Below the pieces are notes generated by a model. The model saw nothing but the letters and a program-made list of their open reading frames with translations. It searched no databases and was not told where the DNA came from. Positions 1 to 4,141 of a stretch of 4,141 bases of DNA are shown here, in pieces (the first letter of the stretch is position 1; each line of letters begins with the position of its first letter). The translations under genes were made by a program, and so were the position numbers. This DNA comes from a virus (lineage: Duplodnaviria > Heunggongvirae > Uroviricota > Caudoviricetes), in the IMG/VR virus record IMGVR_UViG_2778261231_000011, one strand, 5' to 3'.

Positions 1-1143
1 CTATGCTGTTTTGATATCTACGATAACCCAGTCTTTACCACGATCATCATTGTATCGGTCGGTCATTTTTCTGGATTTATGGCCTAACAACTTTTGCGTA
101 TCCAGACCCTGTTCCCGATATAACCGTTCTGACAGAGATCGCTGCTCATGAAATGTGGGCGCAGTTCCTTGCTCCCATTTTATGCCACATTTTTCCCTGG
201 CCTTTTTAAAAGCCGTTGTCAGAGTATTTGCAGAAACCTGGTCTCCTCTGTTTGCTTGAGAGGTAGTGTGACGGTAATGGACCAGATATTTACTAACAAC
301 AGCATCCCTGCACTGAGATATAACTTCACGAAGGGTAATATTCAGAGCATCGCATTTCAGGTTAAGCGGAATAGCAAGTTTTGAACCGGTTTTTTCCTGA
401 GTAATGTGCAACATGTCGTCCCATATATCAGAGAATTTCAAATTGCAGATATCGCCTAAACGTTGTCCAGTAACAAGAGCAAGTAGCATGCCGCATTTTA
501 AATAGGGCTGCCGTCTGCTTACGCTTTCAAATATTGCCTGCCATTCGGGCAGTGACAATCTTTGGCGGTTTACTCGATTTCGCGGTTGTTTTGTTGCCTG
601 CGCTGGGTTAAATCCTGGCGGAACATGTCCTGCGTGTTGTGCTTCTTTGAAGACGTCGATCAACACCATTCTCACGACTTGCGCCATCCTGTTATGACCT
701 TCAGCCTTTACAGCATCAATTATTTCGGCAATATCAAGTGCGGTAATATCCTTGAGGTGTTGCATTCCACAATGCTCACGGAAAAGACGAATGGGTTTGC
801 CTTTTTGCCGATAGGAGTTGGGTCTTAGTTCATTATGTTGCAGCCTGTCCTCCTGGATAGAAATATATTTATCAAGCCATTCTGTCACCGTAATGTCTGA
901 GCGCCTGCCTTTCATTCTTTCCAGACGCTCATTGACGCTTAATATTTGTCTGGTACGTTGTTCAGCAATAATGGTATTTGCTTCAGTAGCAACTTGTTTT
1001 GCTTCATTCTCATCAGTTCCTAAGCTATGAAAACGACCGGATAGTGGATGTTTGTATTGCCAATATACCTTTCCGGTTCGCTTATCTAATTTGCAATATA
1101 AATTGGGTATAGAGATTTTGTGAGATCGGGGTCTAGCAGCCAT
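1..1143 (-). CDS. int: Site-specific tyrosine recombinase (lambda Int family integrase), 380 aa, complete with stop at 1-3
   Basis: Full-length minus-strand ORF. The N-terminus (RPRSHKISIPNLY...) resembles the lambda Int arm-binding domain. The C-terminal catalytic region aligns by eye with lambda Int: TGQRLGDICNLKFSDI (Arg), QEKTGSKLAIP (Lys), TFHEQRSLSERLY (His-x-x-Arg), LLGHKSRKMTDRYNDDRG (His and the Tyr nucleophile). Its start overlaps the upstream xis-like ORF as in lambda. Confidence 0.93.
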   Translation of the reverse strand: MAARPRSHKISIPNLYCKLDKRTGKVYWQYKHPLSGRFHSLGTDENEAKQVATEANTIIAEQRTRQILSVNERLERMKGRRSDITVTEWLDKYISIQEDRLQHNELRPNSYRQKGKPIRLFREHCGMQHLKDITALDIAEIIDAVKAEGHNRMAQVVRMVLIDVFKEAQHAGHVPPGFNPAQATKQPRNRVNRQRLSLPEWQAIFESVSRRQPYLKCGMLLALVTGQRLGDICNLKFSDIWDDMLHITQEKTGSKLAIPLNLKCDALNITLREVISQCRDAVVSKYLVHYRHTTSQANRGDQVSANTLTTAFKKAREKCGIKWEQGTAPTFHEQRSLSERLYREQGLDTQKLLGHKSRKMTDRYNDDRGKDWVIVDIKTA

Positions 1144-1369
1144 CAGCGATTATCCGTTGGAGTTTTGGGTTTGCGTTTATTGGGAGTTGCGGTTCTGCCA
1201 GCGTTCCTACAAAACGGGAATTTCGGTCAATCATCCAGTAGCGACCAACTTTTATAGCGGGTGGGGCCATCATTTTCCCTTGCGCGTATTTTTTCAGAAC
1301 TCGCTCACTTGGTGCTAAGTCCCCAAATTCTTCTTTAGCCCAGTCCTGTAAAGTGATTAGTCGAGACAT
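1133..1369 (-). CDS. xis: Excisionase (lambda Xis-like winged-helix), 78 aa
   Basis: The N-terminus MSRLITLQDWAKE and the PPAIKVGRYW motif resemble lambda Xis (MYLTLQEW ... PPPVKDGREY). A strong Shine-Dalgarno (AGGAGG on the minus strand, reverse complement of 1372-1380) sits 4 nt before the ATG. The ORF overlaps the int start by 11 nt (1133-1143), matching the xis-int arrangement. Confidence 0.82.
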   Translation of the reverse strand: MSRLITLQDWAKEEFGDLAPSERVLKKYAQGKMMAPPAIKVGRYWMIDRNSRFVGTLAEPQLPINANPKLQRIIADGC

Positions 1370-1508
1370 TTGTCCTCCTCTTAGCTGCTGAGGGAGTTTG
1401 TGACCGATATATCTGACATGATATTAAGCTCATGGCAGGTACATCTCTTGACTGGTCATAGAGATAAATTTAATGCTGAGAAATGCAGTATTGAATTTAT
1501 CAATTTTT
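1370..1508 (-). promoter_or_regulatory. AT-rich intergenic region between the small-gene cluster and xis-int; candidate internal promoter or regulatory region
   Basis: This is a 139 bp non-coding gap, AT-rich, containing a short inverted repeat (ATATC-n6-GATAT at 1409-1424). No strong sigma70 consensus could be defined by eye on either strand. Confidence 0.2.
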
Positions 1509-1748
1509 CTATTTCCTGCGTATGGCACGTAACTTCTTAATGTGTTCTGCCGTTTCGATCTCTTCTGCTATCCGATCTGCATCAGCTTTATTCACAGGTT
1601 CAAAGTCATGATTAAAGCGGAACATGCTGGCGATACATGTTCTGCCTTTTCGGATGTAGTGAACTTTGTTGTGGGTAGAACGCAGGATTTTGCAGGGAGT
1701 GCCGTGGTGGTCGACGTACCAGGTGTCAGGAAAAATGATTCTGAACAT
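1509..1748 (-). CDS. Hypothetical small prophage protein, 79 aa, His/Cys-containing N-terminal half and charged C-terminal helix
   Basis: Minus-strand ORF with a good ribosome-binding site (minus strand reads tGAGGTgtaaaaATG). The sequence is protein-like, with a charged C-terminal segment AEEIETAEHIKKLRAIRRK. It sits where lambda carries its ea/orf accessory genes after xis. The family was not recognised with confidence. Confidence 0.55.
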   Translation of the reverse strand: MFRIIFPDTWYVDHHGTPCKILRSTHNKVHYIRKGRTCIASMFRFNHDFEPVNKADADRIAEEIETAEHIKKLRAIRRK

Positions 1749-1795
1749 TTTTACACCTCAGTTGGACGATGTTGAAATTTGCTGCTTTGAGGCCA

Positions 1796-2014
1796 TCACA
1801 ATCCCCATTGTTTGTTCTTAAGTTCGATCTCCTCCTGGCAACTTGCACAAGTCCGACAACCCTGAACGGCCAGGCGTCTTCGTTCATCTATGGGATCGCC
1901 ACACTTACAACAATGAGTGGCAGATATAGCCTGGTGGTTCAGACGACGCATTTTTATTGCTGTATTGCGCTGTAATTCTTCGATTTCTGATGCTGAATCA
2001 ATGATGTCTGCCAT
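1796..2014 (-). CDS. DksA/TraR-family C4 zinc-finger protein, 72 aa (TraR-like modulator of host RNA polymerase)
   Basis: The motif HCCKCGDPIDERRRLAVQGCRTCASCQ matches the CxxC-(n)-CxxC zinc finger and the conserved G(N/D)PI(P/D)E-ARR stretch of F-plasmid TraR (CEACGNPIPEARRKIFPGVTLCVECQ). Length and position are typical of prophage TraR homologues. Confidence 0.85.
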   Translation of the reverse strand: MADIIDSASEIEELQRNTAIKMRRLNHQAISATHCCKCGDPIDERRRLAVQGCRTCASCQEEIELKNKQWGL

Positions 2015-2063
2015 CTTCCATTAATCCCTGAATTGTTGGTTAATACGCTTGAGGGTGAATGCG

Positions 2064-2091
2064 AATAATAAAAAAGGAGCCTGTAGCTCCC
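2064..2091 (-). terminator. Candidate intrinsic (rho-independent) terminator on the minus strand
   Basis: The minus-strand RNA would read G-GGAGC-UACAG-GCUCC-UUUUUUAUUAUU: a 5 bp GC-rich stem (plus 2076-2080 pairing with 2086-2090), a 5 nt loop, and a U-tract (plus-strand A-tract 2064-2075). It lies between the stop of the 71-aa ORF and the start of the TraR-like gene. Confidence 0.4.
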
Positions 2092-2112
2092 TGATGATTT
2101 TGCTTTTCATGT

Positions 2113-2328
2113 TCATCGCTCCTTAAAGAAGCCGTTTAACATGCCGATCGCCAGGCTTAAATGAGTCGGTGTGAATCCCATCAGCGTTACCGTTTCGCGG
2201 TGCTTCTTCAGTACGCTACGGCAAATGTCATCGACGTTTTTATCCGGAAACTGCTGTCTGGCTTTTTTGATTTCAGAATTAGCCTGACGGGCAATGCTGC
2301 GAAGGGCGTTTTCCTGCTGAGGTGTCAT
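2113..2328 (-). CDS. Hypothetical small basic protein, 71 aa (alternative in-frame upstream start at 2394 would give 93 aa)
   Basis: This is the listed ORF 2113..2394, called here from the internal Met (MTPQQENALRSIARQ...). That ATG forms an ATGA overlap with the stop of the upstream 27-codon ORF and has a GGGA 8 nt upstream. The 2394 start has no visible Shine-Dalgarno. The protein is net basic. Confidence 0.5.
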   Translation of the reverse strand: MTPQQENALRSIARQANSEIKKARQQFPDKNVDDICRSVLKKHRETVTLMGFTPTHLSLAIGMLNGFFKER

Positions 2329-2408
2329 TGAACAAGTCCCATGTCGGCAAGCATAAGCACACAGAATATGAAGCCCGCTGCCAGAAAAATGCATTCAGTG
2401 GTTGTCAT
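2325..2408 (-). CDS. Unlisted 27-aa hydrophobic micro-ORF (MTTTECIFLAAGFIFCVLMLADMGLVQ), possible small membrane peptide
   Basis: Found by reading the minus strand between two listed ORFs. Its ATG (2408-2406) overlaps the TGA stop of the 63-aa ORF, and its TGA stop (2327-2325) overlaps the ATG of the 71-aa ORF, both as ATGA. The core is hydrophobic, long enough for one transmembrane helix. It falls below the ORF-track size cutoff. Confidence 0.3.
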   Translation of the reverse strand: MTTTECIFLAAGFIFCVLMLADMGLVQ

Positions 2409-2596
2409 ACCTGGTCTCTCTCATCTGCTTCTGCTTTCGCCACCATCATTTCCAGCTTTTGTGAAAGGGATGCGGCTAACGTATGAAATTCTTCGTCTGT
2501 TTCTACTGGTATTGGCACAAACCTGACTCCAATTTGAGCGAGGCTATGTGCCATCTCGATACTCGTTCTTAACTCAACGGGAGATGCTTTATGCAT
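2405..2596 (-). CDS. Hypothetical small acidic protein, 63 aa
   Basis: Minus-strand ORF MHKASPVELRTSIEMAHSLAQIGVRFVPIPVETDEEFHTLAASLSQKLEMMVAKAEADERDQV. It is net acidic, with a purine-rich stretch (GGGGGG) a few nt upstream of the ATG. It is the first gene of the leftward coupled cassette. The family was not recognised. Confidence 0.5.
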   Translation of the reverse strand: MHKASPVELRTSIEMAHSLAQIGVRFVPIPVETDEEFHTLAASLSQKLEMMVAKAEADERDQV

Positions 2597-3150
2597 ACAG
2601 CCCCCCGTTTATTATTTATCTTCTCAGCCAGCCGCTGTGCTTTCAGTGGATTTCTGATAAACGCCTTTACCCGAATCAGGTAAACACAAAAGACAAACTA
2701 ACAAAAGACAATATAAAACCTTTTTCGTCAGAGAATTCTGGCGAATCCTCTGACCAGCCAGAAAACGATCTTCCTGTGGTGAAACCGGATGCTGCAATTC
2801 AGAGCGGCAGCAAGTGGGGGACAGCAGAAGACCTGACCGCCGCAGAGTGGATGTTTGACATGGTGAAGACCATCGCGCCATCAGCCAGAAAACCGAATTT
2901 TGCAGGGTGGGCTAACGATATCCGCCTGATGCGTGAACGTGACGGACGTAACCACCGCGACATGTGTGTACTGTTCCGCTGGGCATGCCAGGACAACTTC
3001 TGGTCCGGTAACGTGCTGAGTCCGGCCAAACTCCGCGACAAGTGGACCCAGCTCGAAATCAACCGAAACAAGCAACAGGCTGGCGTGACAGCCGGCAAAC
3101 CAAAACTCGACCTGACGAACACTGACTGGATTTACGGGGTGGAGCTATGA
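2548..3150 (+). CDS. O: Replication protein O, C-terminal (P-interacting) domain only; N-terminally truncated with a non-homologous GTG-initiated 5' extension; possibly a pseudogene or remnant
   Basis: From about 2685 onward the translation (TKDKLTKDNIKPFSSENSGESSDQPENDL...WGTAEDLTAAEWMFDMVKTIAPSARKPNFAGWANDIRLMRERDGRNHRDMCVLFRWACQDNFWSGNVLSPAKLRDKWTQLEINRNKQQAGVT...KPKLDLTNTDWIYGVEL) matches, from memory, the linker and C-terminal domain of lambda O. The stop overlaps the P start as ATGA, as in lambda. The first roughly 45 codons show no O similarity. The frame opens at 2527 and the only upstream start is GTG 2548 (GAGG 4 nt upstream); the first in-frame ATG is 2584. Confidence 0.7.
   Translation: MPSRYSFLTQREMLYAYSPPFIIYLLSQPLCFQWISDKRLYPNQVNTKDKLTKDNIKPFSSENSGESSDQPENDLPVVKPDAAIQSGSKWGTAEDLTAAEWMFDMVKTIAPSARKPNFAGWANDIRLMRERDGRNHRDMCVLFRWACQDNFWSGNVLSPAKLRDKWTQLEINRNKQQAGVTAGKPKLDLTNTDWIYGVEL
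2681..2740. other. Remnant of a lambda-type replication origin: AT-rich unwinding segment without the upstream iterons
   Basis: An AT-rich run carries the direct repeat ACAAAAGACAA twice (2686-2696 and 2701-2711), followed by TTTTTCGTCAGAGAATTCTGGCGAATCC with an EcoRI site at 2733-2738. This matches my recollection of the right half of ori-lambda, which lies inside O. No 18-19 bp iteron repeats are visible in the 250 bp upstream. Confidence 0.5.
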
Positions 3151-3848
3151 AAAACATCGCCGCACAGATGGTTAACTTTGACCGTGAGCAGATGCGCCGG
3201 ATCGCCAACAACATGCCGGAACAGTACGACGAAAAGCCGCAGGTACAACAGGTAGCGCAGATCATCAATGGTGTGTTCAGCCAGTTACTGGCAACTTTCC
3301 CGGCGAGCCTGGCTAACCGGGACCAGAACGAACTGAACGAAATCCGCCGCCAGTGGGTGCTGGCTTTCCGGGAAAACGGGATCACCACAATGGAACAGGT
3401 TAACGCAGGAATGCGCGTAGCCCGTCGGCAGAATCGACCATTCCTGCCATCACCCGGGCAGTTTGTTGCCTGGTGCCGGGAAGAAGCATCCGTTAACGCC
3501 GGGCTGCCAAACGTCAGCGAGCTGGTTGATATGGTCTATGAGTATTGTCGGAAGCGTGGCCTGTATCCGGATGCAGAGTCTTATCCGTGGAAATCAAACG
3601 CGCACTACTGGCTGGTTACCAACCTGTACCAGAACATGCGGGCCAATGCGCTTACTGATGCGGAATTACGGCGCAAGGCTGCCGATGAACTGACTTGTAT
3701 GACCGCGCGAATTAACCGTGGTGAGGCGATACCTGAACCAGTAAAACAACTTCCTGTCATGGGCGGTAGACCTCTAAATCGTGCACAGGCTCTGGCGAAG
3801 ATCGCAGAAATCAAAGCGAAGTTCGGACTGAAAGGAGCAACTGTATGA
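3147..3848 (+). CDS. P: Replication protein P (lambda P family; DnaB helicase loader), 233 aa
   Basis: The translation (MKNIAAQMVNFDREQMRRIANNMPEQYDEKPQVQQVAQIINGVFSQLLATFPASL ... AKIAEIKAKFGLKGATV) is recognised as near-identical to bacteriophage lambda P at the same length. ATGA overlaps link it to O' upstream and ren downstream. Confidence 0.93.
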   Translation: MKNIAAQMVNFDREQMRRIANNMPEQYDEKPQVQQVAQIINGVFSQLLATFPASLANRDQNELNEIRRQWVLAFRENGITTMEQVNAGMRVARRQNRPFLPSPGQFVAWCREEASVNAGLPNVSELVDMVYEYCRKRGLYPDAESYPWKSNAHYWLVTNLYQNMRANALTDAELRRKAADELTCMTARINRGEAIPEPVKQLPVMGGRPLNRAQALAKIAEIKAKFGLKGATV

Positions 3849-4141
3849 CGGGCAAAGAGGTAATTATTCATTATCTGGAGACGCACAAGAGCTTCTGTGC
3901 GCAGGACGTTGCTGCGGCAACAGGTGTGACAGTAACCTGCATAAATCAGGCAGCAGCTAAAATGGCGCGGGCAGGAATCCTGGTCATTGATGGTAAGGTC
4001 TGGCGAACGGTGTATTACCGGTTCGCTACCAGAGAAGAACGGGAAGGAAAGGTGAGCACGAACCTGATTTTTAAGGAGTGTCGCCAGAGTGCCGCGATGA
4101 AGCGGGTGTTGGCGGTATATGGGTTATTAGTTATTACTTGA
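3845..4141 (+). CDS. ren: Ren (Rex-exclusion resistance protein) homologue, 98 aa, complete with stop at 4139-4141
   Basis: The translation MTGKEVIIHYLETHKSFCAQDVAAATGVTVTCINQAAAKMARAGILVIDGKVWRTVYYRFATREEREGKVSTNLIFKECRQSAAMKRVL closely matches lambda Ren as I recall it. It sits immediately after P with an ATGA overlap. The last roughly 8 residues may diverge from lambda. Confidence 0.82.
   Translation: MTGKEVIIHYLETHKSFCAQDVAAATGVTVTCINQAAAKMARAGILVIDGKVWRTVYYRFATREEREGKVSTNLIFKECRQSAAMKRVLAVYGLLVIT

Follow-up and report, generated by a model that had tools for sequence, protein, structure and literature searches.

The overlapping 5′ ends of an O′ open frame and a DUF1382 gene very probably represent the scar of a single deletion in a decayed lambdoid prophage

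How do two open frames on opposite strands of a phage-derived DNA come to start inside one another? The locus that raises this question lies in a stretch of 4,141 nucleotides (here called the window), in which the 5′ end of a plus-strand frame related to the lambda replication protein O, labeled O′, overlaps the 5′ end of a minus-strand gene for a 63-amino acid protein. The window is the left portion of a decayed lambda-like prophage of E. coli that adjoins icd, and it comprises the following genes.

1–1143, minus strand: integrase (ORF list, Pfam, and public gene calls)
1133–1369, minus strand: excisionase (Pfam)
1509–1748, minus strand: DUF4222 gene (Pfam), among the leftover genes of the exo-xis region
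1796–2014, minus strand: TraR/DksA zinc finger gene (Pfam), leftover gene of the exo-xis region
2113–2328, minus strand: 71-aa gene in the orf61 position, leftover gene of the exo-xis region
2405–2596, minus strand: intact DUF1382 gene of 63 aa with an ATG start, homologue of lambda orf63 (PF07131)
2548–3150, plus strand: chimeric O′ frame, 200 aa from GTG 2548 or 188 aa from ATG 2584 (ORF list and codon walk)
3147–3848, plus strand: intact replication gene P, 233 aa (PF06992, E = 9e-62)
3845–4141, plus strand: ren-like gene, 98 aa (“protein ren” in public sources)

The genes int and xis are located directly downstream of icd (as seen in L005 and L006), a site that is also used by prophages with the same integrase elsewhere. 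The order of the whole region reads phoQP-purB-hflD-mnmA-nudJ-rluE-icd, followed by int, xis, DUF4222, TraR, the 71-aa gene, DUF1382, O′, P, and ren. The start of P overlaps the stop codon of O′ (ATGA), just as P starts at the O stop codon in lambda, and the identical P protein is present in many intact prophages. All 4,141 bases recur at 100% identity in L005, L006, L007, L008, and L013, which stem from different samples.

A codon walk shows that the O′ frame is closed upstream by a TGA at 2524 and that GTG 2548 and ATG 2584 are its only ATG, GTG, or TTG codons before the O-derived part; later starts occur at GTG 2776, GTG 2779, ATG 2851, ATG 2860, and GTG 2863. Both early starts fall inside the minus-strand 63-aa gene, which the ORF list places at 2405–2596, and the overlap with this gene amounts to 49 nt from GTG 2548 and to 13 nt from ATG 2584. 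The geometry is thus exactly as given in the preliminary description, which had allowed O′ these two starts and located both within the 63-aa gene. The latter is a full member of the DUF1382/Orf63 family: its product matches PF07131 with E = 3e-31 over profile positions 1–60 of 60 and is 95% identical to lambda Orf63 and 100% identical to its counterpart in L016, an undeleted relative of the window.

We compared the window with L016 and found two blocks of 100% identity. Window positions 2044–2660 correspond to L016 1–617, and window positions 2658–3873 correspond to L016 5512–6727. Relative to L016, 4,897 bp (L016 618–5514) are missing. At the joint, the left parent (GATAA/CAG) reads GGATTTCTGATAA up to the breakpoint and CAGAAAGG beyond it, whereas the right parent (GGTAA/ACG) reads CTAAATCAGGTAA up to the breakpoint and ACGCCTTT beyond it. 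The TAA that both parents have in common is present as a single copy in the window. The left breakpoint is situated inside the homologue of orf60a/DUF1317, and the right breakpoint is situated at O codon 176/177 (of 339), where iteron 4 of the replication origin (ori) ends. The features around the joint are as follows.

2548–2657, plus strand: 5′ extension of O′, very probably accidental, antisense to the 5′ end of DUF1382 and to the DUF1317 3′ remnant
2569–2660, minus strand: 3′ remnant of DUF1317 (lambda orf60a), last 30 codons and stop, by comparison with the intact 60-aa gene
2658–2660, no strand: deletion junction, TAA microhomology common to both parents
2658–3150, plus strand: O-derived part, linker and C-terminal domain, O codons 177–339 and stop (L016 comparison)
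2658–2661, no strand: tail of iteron 4
2662–2665, no strand: CGCC spacer
2666–2684, no strand: iteron 5 of ori, the last to survive, TTTACCCGAATCAGGTAAA (L016 iteron array)
2685–2725, no strand: A+T-rich origin segment, retained (read from the sequence and from its lambda-ori position relative to the iterons)

The preliminary description had attributed the 5′ extension of O′ to a recombination junction at which an open frame arose by accident. The comparison with L016 maps such a junction to 2658–2660 and supports this interpretation almost to the base. The overlap of the two 5′ ends is therefore not a chance curiosity, as it is the direct product of this junction. An artificial joint made during assembly is next to inconceivable. 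We counted no point in its favor, and the same sequence runs across the junction in the isolate assemblies GCA_900604275.1 (a 1.26-Mb contig) and GCA_002545375.1 as well as in independent metagenome and run assemblies. On the left side, the homology stops at 2660 in 75 loci that possess an intact neighboring gene. Because both flanks of the window match L016 at 100% identity, the deletion must be recent.

The deleted stretch removed the start and the first 30 codons of DUF1317, so the 60-aa ORF that overlaps the exo stop no longer exists; the intact gene in L016 matches PF07026. From the leftward arm, the deletion also took exo (YqaJ), bet (RecT), gam, and kilR, as assigned from the L016 and L017 gene tables and the lambda map. 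The lost control genes are the S24/HTH repressor, YdaS in the cro position, and YdaT in the cII position. Lost replication DNA includes O codons 1–176 with the DNA-binding domain of O and four of the five iterons. Judged by the gene order of lambda, both early promoters most likely lay in the deleted stretch as well. The lambda exo-xis region has the same order orf61-orf63-orf60a-exo and the same 28-nt overlap between the end of orf60a and the start of orf63, whereas the window retains only half of orf60a and has most likely lost the natural source of transcription.

The O-derived part of O′ is well defined. Residues 38–200 of O′ are identical to residues 177–339 of the 339-aa O protein of L016. 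Residues 57–200 (from about nt 2716) are nearly identical to the C-terminal part of lambda O, to which similarity becomes continuous only from about nt 2725, and the DNA similarity to most other lambdoid O genes begins between 2658 and 2684, varying with their iterons. Residues 1–37 match no O protein. The preliminary description had noted a lack of O similarity over the first ∼45 codons; the lack itself is real, but with an O of the matching type the boundary moves to codon 38 (nt 2658/2659). The parental O hits PF04492 (Phage_rep_O) at residues 51–145, all of which are deleted, and a Pfam search with the 200-aa O′ gave no match. In comparison with lambda O, O′ thus retains the C-terminal, P-interacting half, but has neither the N-terminal DNA-binding domain PF04492 nor the native conserved N terminus, and only one of five iterons is left. 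A protein cluster that contains O′ has 586 members, and most of the named members listed are called “replication protein O, partial.”

As in lambda, the origin is located within the O gene and consists of iterons followed by an A+T-rich stretch. The O gene of L016 contains five 19-bp iterons of the form TTTACC-N7-GGTAAA at about 5427–5538, ahead of the A+T-rich stretch. This palindromic, five-copy arrangement of the parent, of which the window keeps the last copy, differs from the iterons of lambda. Iterons 4 and 5 are separated by a 4-nt spacer that reads CGCC in the window and in L016 and GGCG in phage PhiR70_1 and L001 (compared at window 2655–2671, L003 about 1990–2010, and L001 about 4262–4280). 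This spacer forms the loop of a perfect hairpin, GGTAAA-NNNN-TTTACC. The loop is thus inverted between the two alleles, as is characteristic of template switching in a hairpin. The iteron half-site GGTAA(A) also resembles the motif that is enriched at deletion breakpoints (see below), possibly by coincidence.

Does the extension of O′ behave like coding sequence? We counted substitutions at 2548–2658 in each frame among 23 haplotypes from 85 loci. In the plus frame of the O′ extension, 2 changes are synonymous and 17 are non-synonymous. The minus-strand frame of DUF1382 shows the opposite pattern, with 5 synonymous changes and 1 non-synonymous change, and the minus-strand frame of DUF1317 has 9 synonymous and 8 non-synonymous changes. 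The O′ extension is without coding constraint. The substitutions fit the minus-strand genes to which the extension lies antisense and not the plus frame, which further backs the reading as an accidental frame.

These counts also bear on the idea of a true divergent pair of overlapping genes, each with its promoter inside the other, which we consider highly improbable. The geometry alone speaks for such a pair, but the substitution pattern of the plus frame argues against coding, and the arrangement arises from one recent deletion and is confined to one lineage. The junction was found in none of 5,426 complete E. coli genomes and in none of 80 viral contigs that encode a DUF1382 protein 98–100% identical to that of the window, and exact-pattern scans of GTDB, with one genome per species, gave no match. 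The preliminary description had reasoned that overlapping divergent 5′ ends would require each promoter to sit inside the other gene. The overlap is real, but by the gene order of lambda neither gene had a promoter of its own at this place, since both are internal operon genes.

Could O′ nevertheless be made and serve a function? GTG 2548 is preceded at a distance of 4 nt by a Shine-Dalgarno (SD)-like GAGG with an anti-SD duplex energy of –8.4 kcal/mol, which lies within the range of the real genes in the window (–3.3 to –12.0 kcal/mol). ATG 2584 directly abuts a GGGAG, which is too close for efficient use. Given an mRNA, translation of O′ from GTG 2548 would thus be chemically feasible. A consensus scan for σ70-like sites across 2200–3000 yielded none, but the same scan also misses the early promoters expected in L016, and its silence is accordingly weak evidence. 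A terminator-like hairpin at 2632–2649 is at chance level.

A functional O′ might act as a free O C-terminal domain that binds P and thereby buffers the toxicity of P or hinders the replication of incoming lambdoid phages. The frame is intact, in phase, and furnished with the SD-like sequence before GTG 2548, and both P and ren are intact. Away from the origin, too, O and P are known to interact, and the lethality of P is limited when O is co-expressed (PMC6022878). Moreover, fragments of the lambda replication region are able to inhibit lambdoid phages (PMC3349717). We still regard this function as unlikely. By the gene order of lambda the natural promoter is removed, and the admittedly insensitive consensus scan found none in its place; the extension carries no coding constraint; and an in-phase fusion had a prior chance of 1 in 3. 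In other lineages, the remaining O fragments are of very different lengths and are pseudogenes in the NCBI annotation. Finally, the window equals L016, leaving no time for selection to act. Given this identity and the recent event, decay of O′ is not yet to be expected, and the sequence cannot yet show it.

The overlapping starts are, with high probability, the scar of one 4,897-bp deletion that fused leftover pieces into an accidental open frame. Here the junction, its two parents, the deleted content, and the absence of coding constraint on the extension are established, and the course of events would be the following. One illegitimate deletion would have joined the middle of orf60a/DUF1317, from the distal end of the leftward early operon, to O codon 176/177, from the rightward early operon, through the 3-bp TAA microhomology. 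The frame antisense to DUF1317 and DUF1382 would by chance have been open back to the TGA at 2524, and the join would by chance have been in phase. The outcome would be a 200-codon ORF, the first 37 codons of which are meaningless antisense, with two fortuitous starts inside the DUF1382 gene. DUF1382, P, and ren would be leftovers whose operon promoters were most likely lost.

Most likely, O′ is therefore a pseudogene fragment, and the locus is no working divergent pair. Arguments that weaken the deletion scar as the full account are the SD-like GAGG before GTG 2548, which would permit translation given a transcript, the low weight of the promoter scan, the identity to L016, and the recurrence of TA at similar joints (see below), which suggests that the deletion was perhaps not random. 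Transcription of both arms is now presumably weak or absent. The remnant would be uninducible, would express neither kil nor Red functions, and would possess an origin that cannot fire. The deletion presumably persisted because it removed induction, the kil functions, and in situ replication from ori (replicative killing). When non-excisable lambda prophages are induced, the surviving cells carry mutations in O, P, or ori (PMC6022878). The window resembles these RK− survivors, in which loss of O, P, or ori rescues cells with a trapped inducible prophage (PMC6022878), and its deletion takes the N terminus of O and the iterons. In contrast to the window, the RK− mutants come from laboratory selections and mostly carry small lesions, whereas selection of the natural deletion is inferred.

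The calling of O′ as a gene has left traces in public records. The 188-aa version that starts at ATG 2584 is called in 14 contigs, which comprise the two E. coli isolate assemblies together with metagenome and run assemblies; a look-up of the 200-aa product with the GTG start in public records gave no match. In several contigs the public calls shorten the DUF1382 gene to 37 or 49 aa, apparently an annotation artefact that avoids overlap with the called 188-aa O′ ORF. Examples of such shortened calls, equivalent to window 2405–2596, are found in L005 (9822–9935), L007 (2766–2915), and L008 (2597–2746). We recommend annotating the 188/200-aa ORF as a pseudogene fragment of O and keeping the DUF1382 gene at its full 63 aa.

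As a kind of feature, a defective lambdoid prophage with a deletion of the immunity region is ordinary and already well known. The repressor, cro, and recombination genes are absent, both flanking arms are present, and the promoters are inferred to be lost, which places the window in the class of DLP12. DLP12 of E. coli K-12 (xisD′-exoD′-peaD′-renD) is the closest textbook relative of the locus. Like the window, it is lambdoid, has lost its immunity and early-control region by internal deletions, carries int at one end, and shows remnants of the leftward arm joined directly to remnants of rightward replication genes, with ren next. Unlike the window, DLP12 is integrated at argU rather than at icd, and its joints connect the xis side with orf60a and exo with P, with no O left. 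The window, in turn, keeps DUF1382, other exo-xis genes, and an intact P. Different deletions affect this region in same-integrase prophages at icd and in DLP12-type prophages at argU. Their arrangement is as follows, and the O pieces of these parallel loci are those annotated by NCBI as pseudogenes.

L102: xis side joined to O
L103: DUF1317 joined to YdaT
L104: exo joined to O
L001: DUF1317 joined to a regulator fragment; a second deletion lies within O
L002: DUF1317 joined to O; a second deletion lies within P
K-12 DLP12: two joints, xisD side with orf60a and exoD with peaD (P)

The joints of such deletions showed a pattern that we had not anticipated. We mapped them on an ancestor model of 14.7 kb, composed of window 1–2660 and L016 from 618 to its end. 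TA lies within the microhomology at 13 of the 14 joints for which both parents are known, usually as exactly 2 bp, whereas TA makes up 5.6% of the dinucleotides in the model DNA (naive binomial P = 7e-16, from a small sample of joints collected around one gene). Outside the hotspot S1 described below, the proportion is six of seven. The exception is the joint of L102, which has no TA. The homology ends of L033 and L101, which lie outside this set of 14 joints, are likewise without TA and are perhaps mosaic boundaries.

Several positions are used repeatedly. The hotspot S1 (GCGCC-TA-CCCGG) lies in DUF1317 codons 9–10, at model 2722–2723 (L016 679–680), 63 nt to the right of the left breakpoint of the window and thus in DNA that the window has lost. 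Its left half has at least 13 different right-hand partners, including O (at two positions), P, YdaT, several positions in the nin region, the start of a tail-fibre gene, and a helicase gene. Its right half is joined to 2 left-hand partners, one of which is the xisD joint of K-12 DLP12. Joints at S1 were seen in L001, L002, L029, L049, L069, L092, L103, L105, L109, L111, L112, L113, and L124. Both breakpoints of the window are also reused. The left TA (2658–2659) recurs in L062 with another partner (GGGTA/CCTTCTG...), and at the right TA, where iteron 4 ends, the O-internal deletion of L001 has its own right breakpoint (window 2658–2661 versus L001 4265–4272). Model sites 7810 and 8664 have two different partners each.

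The joints share a preference beyond TA. Both joints of DLP12 (L121, K-12 MG1655; 2573–2574 and 2877–2878) are 2-bp TA joints at GGTA, namely GAGGTA/CCCGG, which connects the xisD side to the orf60a hotspot, and GGAGGTA/CGAGT, which connects exoD to peaD. GGTA or TACC accounts for about 14% of TA sites but, in our own tally, for roughly two thirds of about 18 distinct breakpoint sites. Of the four CCGGTA sites that the 14.7-kb model contains, two serve as breakpoints.

These patterns could reflect a break-and-join activity at TA that prefers GGTA/TACC, repeatedly trims lambdoid prophages, and also made the junction of the window. The frequency of TA inside and outside S1, the many partners of S1, the reuse of both window breakpoints and of model sites 7810 and 8664, the DLP12 joints, and the enrichment of GGTA/TACC and CCGGTA all argue for it. 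Against it stand the TA-free joint of L102, the occurrence of sites in both orientations, and the lack of an extended consensus past (G)GTA. Since many joints involve S1, the events are only partly independent as evidence for TA, and the sample is small and was gathered around one gene. On balance, such an activity is a serious possibility, although we would not call it probable. Candidates may be a serine recombinase that works on quasi-sites built around a TA core, a deletion linked to a transposase or to IS excision, for instance after a former IS insertion at the hotspot, or a nuclease whose TA ends are subsequently ligated. This explanation concerns only the origin of the scar; its reading as a deletion scar stands either way.

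A more specific claim, that the scar of the window is one product of a hitherto undescribed TA-directed and GGTA-preferring process that reuses positions (the two breakpoints of the window, at least 15 partners of the orf60a hotspot, and both DLP12 joints), is put forward somewhat more tentatively. Literature searches on prophage deletion breakpoints that recur or lie at TA turned up nothing relevant. If the claim is true, a specific enzyme or DNA structure, and not random illegitimate recombination, would account for part of the “grounding” of prophages, and with a specific activity the long-standing question of prophage decay would become directly testable.

Other explanations for the TA joints were considered and set aside. 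TA is far too frequent for plain random microhomology, and for selection of stop codons at the joint there is no consistent frame. The sfx sites of the Rci shufflon were considered because of the similarity of breakpoint sites S4 and S7 to the right arm TCCGGTACGTGG; however, the joints lie at TA inside the arm, and the crossover core GTGCCAA (7 bp, 5′ of the right arm) is absent at the joints. Integron core sites were dropped: the product GCCTAAC resembles an inverse core site, but the crossover is one base off. Cuts by type II restriction enzymes (CCNGG, GTAC, and GGTNACC) fit only S1 or only the product. Sites of Din-family invertases and the Tn3 res site have the wrong central dinucleotide, and TTAC targets of the IS608 type have the wrong cut position.

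The locus represents a cleanly resolved case of a single deletion that disarms a lambdoid prophage. int/xis, the exo-xis genes, P, and ren presumably remain as silent spare parts that can recombine into incoming phages. The exo-xis genes orf63 and orf60a of lambda are early genes with an effect on the lysis–lysogeny decision (PMC5575149, PMC6213356, and PMC10869804). No known RNA of Rfam matches in the window. An A+T-rich inverted repeat of 16 pairs lies between xis and DUF4222 (1463–1501, plus strand). Between the 71-aa gene and the TraR gene, a strong terminator-like hairpin (2092–2074, minus strand) consists of an 8-bp stem followed by TTTTATTATT and may be the terminator of the leftward operon.

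The host flanks are 97–98% identical to complete E. coli genomes. For the nudJ-rluE-icd flank (L005 4701–7417), identity to three such genomes, L102, L103, and L104, is 97.4–98.0%, which looked low for a comparison within a species; either the icd-proximal DNA or the host lineage may be divergent. In the lineage of the window, ren is followed on its 3′ side by an HD-domain gene and then by IS1, and the remainder of the prophage is absent; an autotransporter gene, ymgD, and minE lie beyond IS1. In relatives, two genes that probably serve as anti-phage cargo occupy the region 3′ of ren (L005 11914–14748; L017 7351–10760): one encodes a 515-aa HD-domain protein, the other a 500-aa SNIPE/T5orf172 protein.
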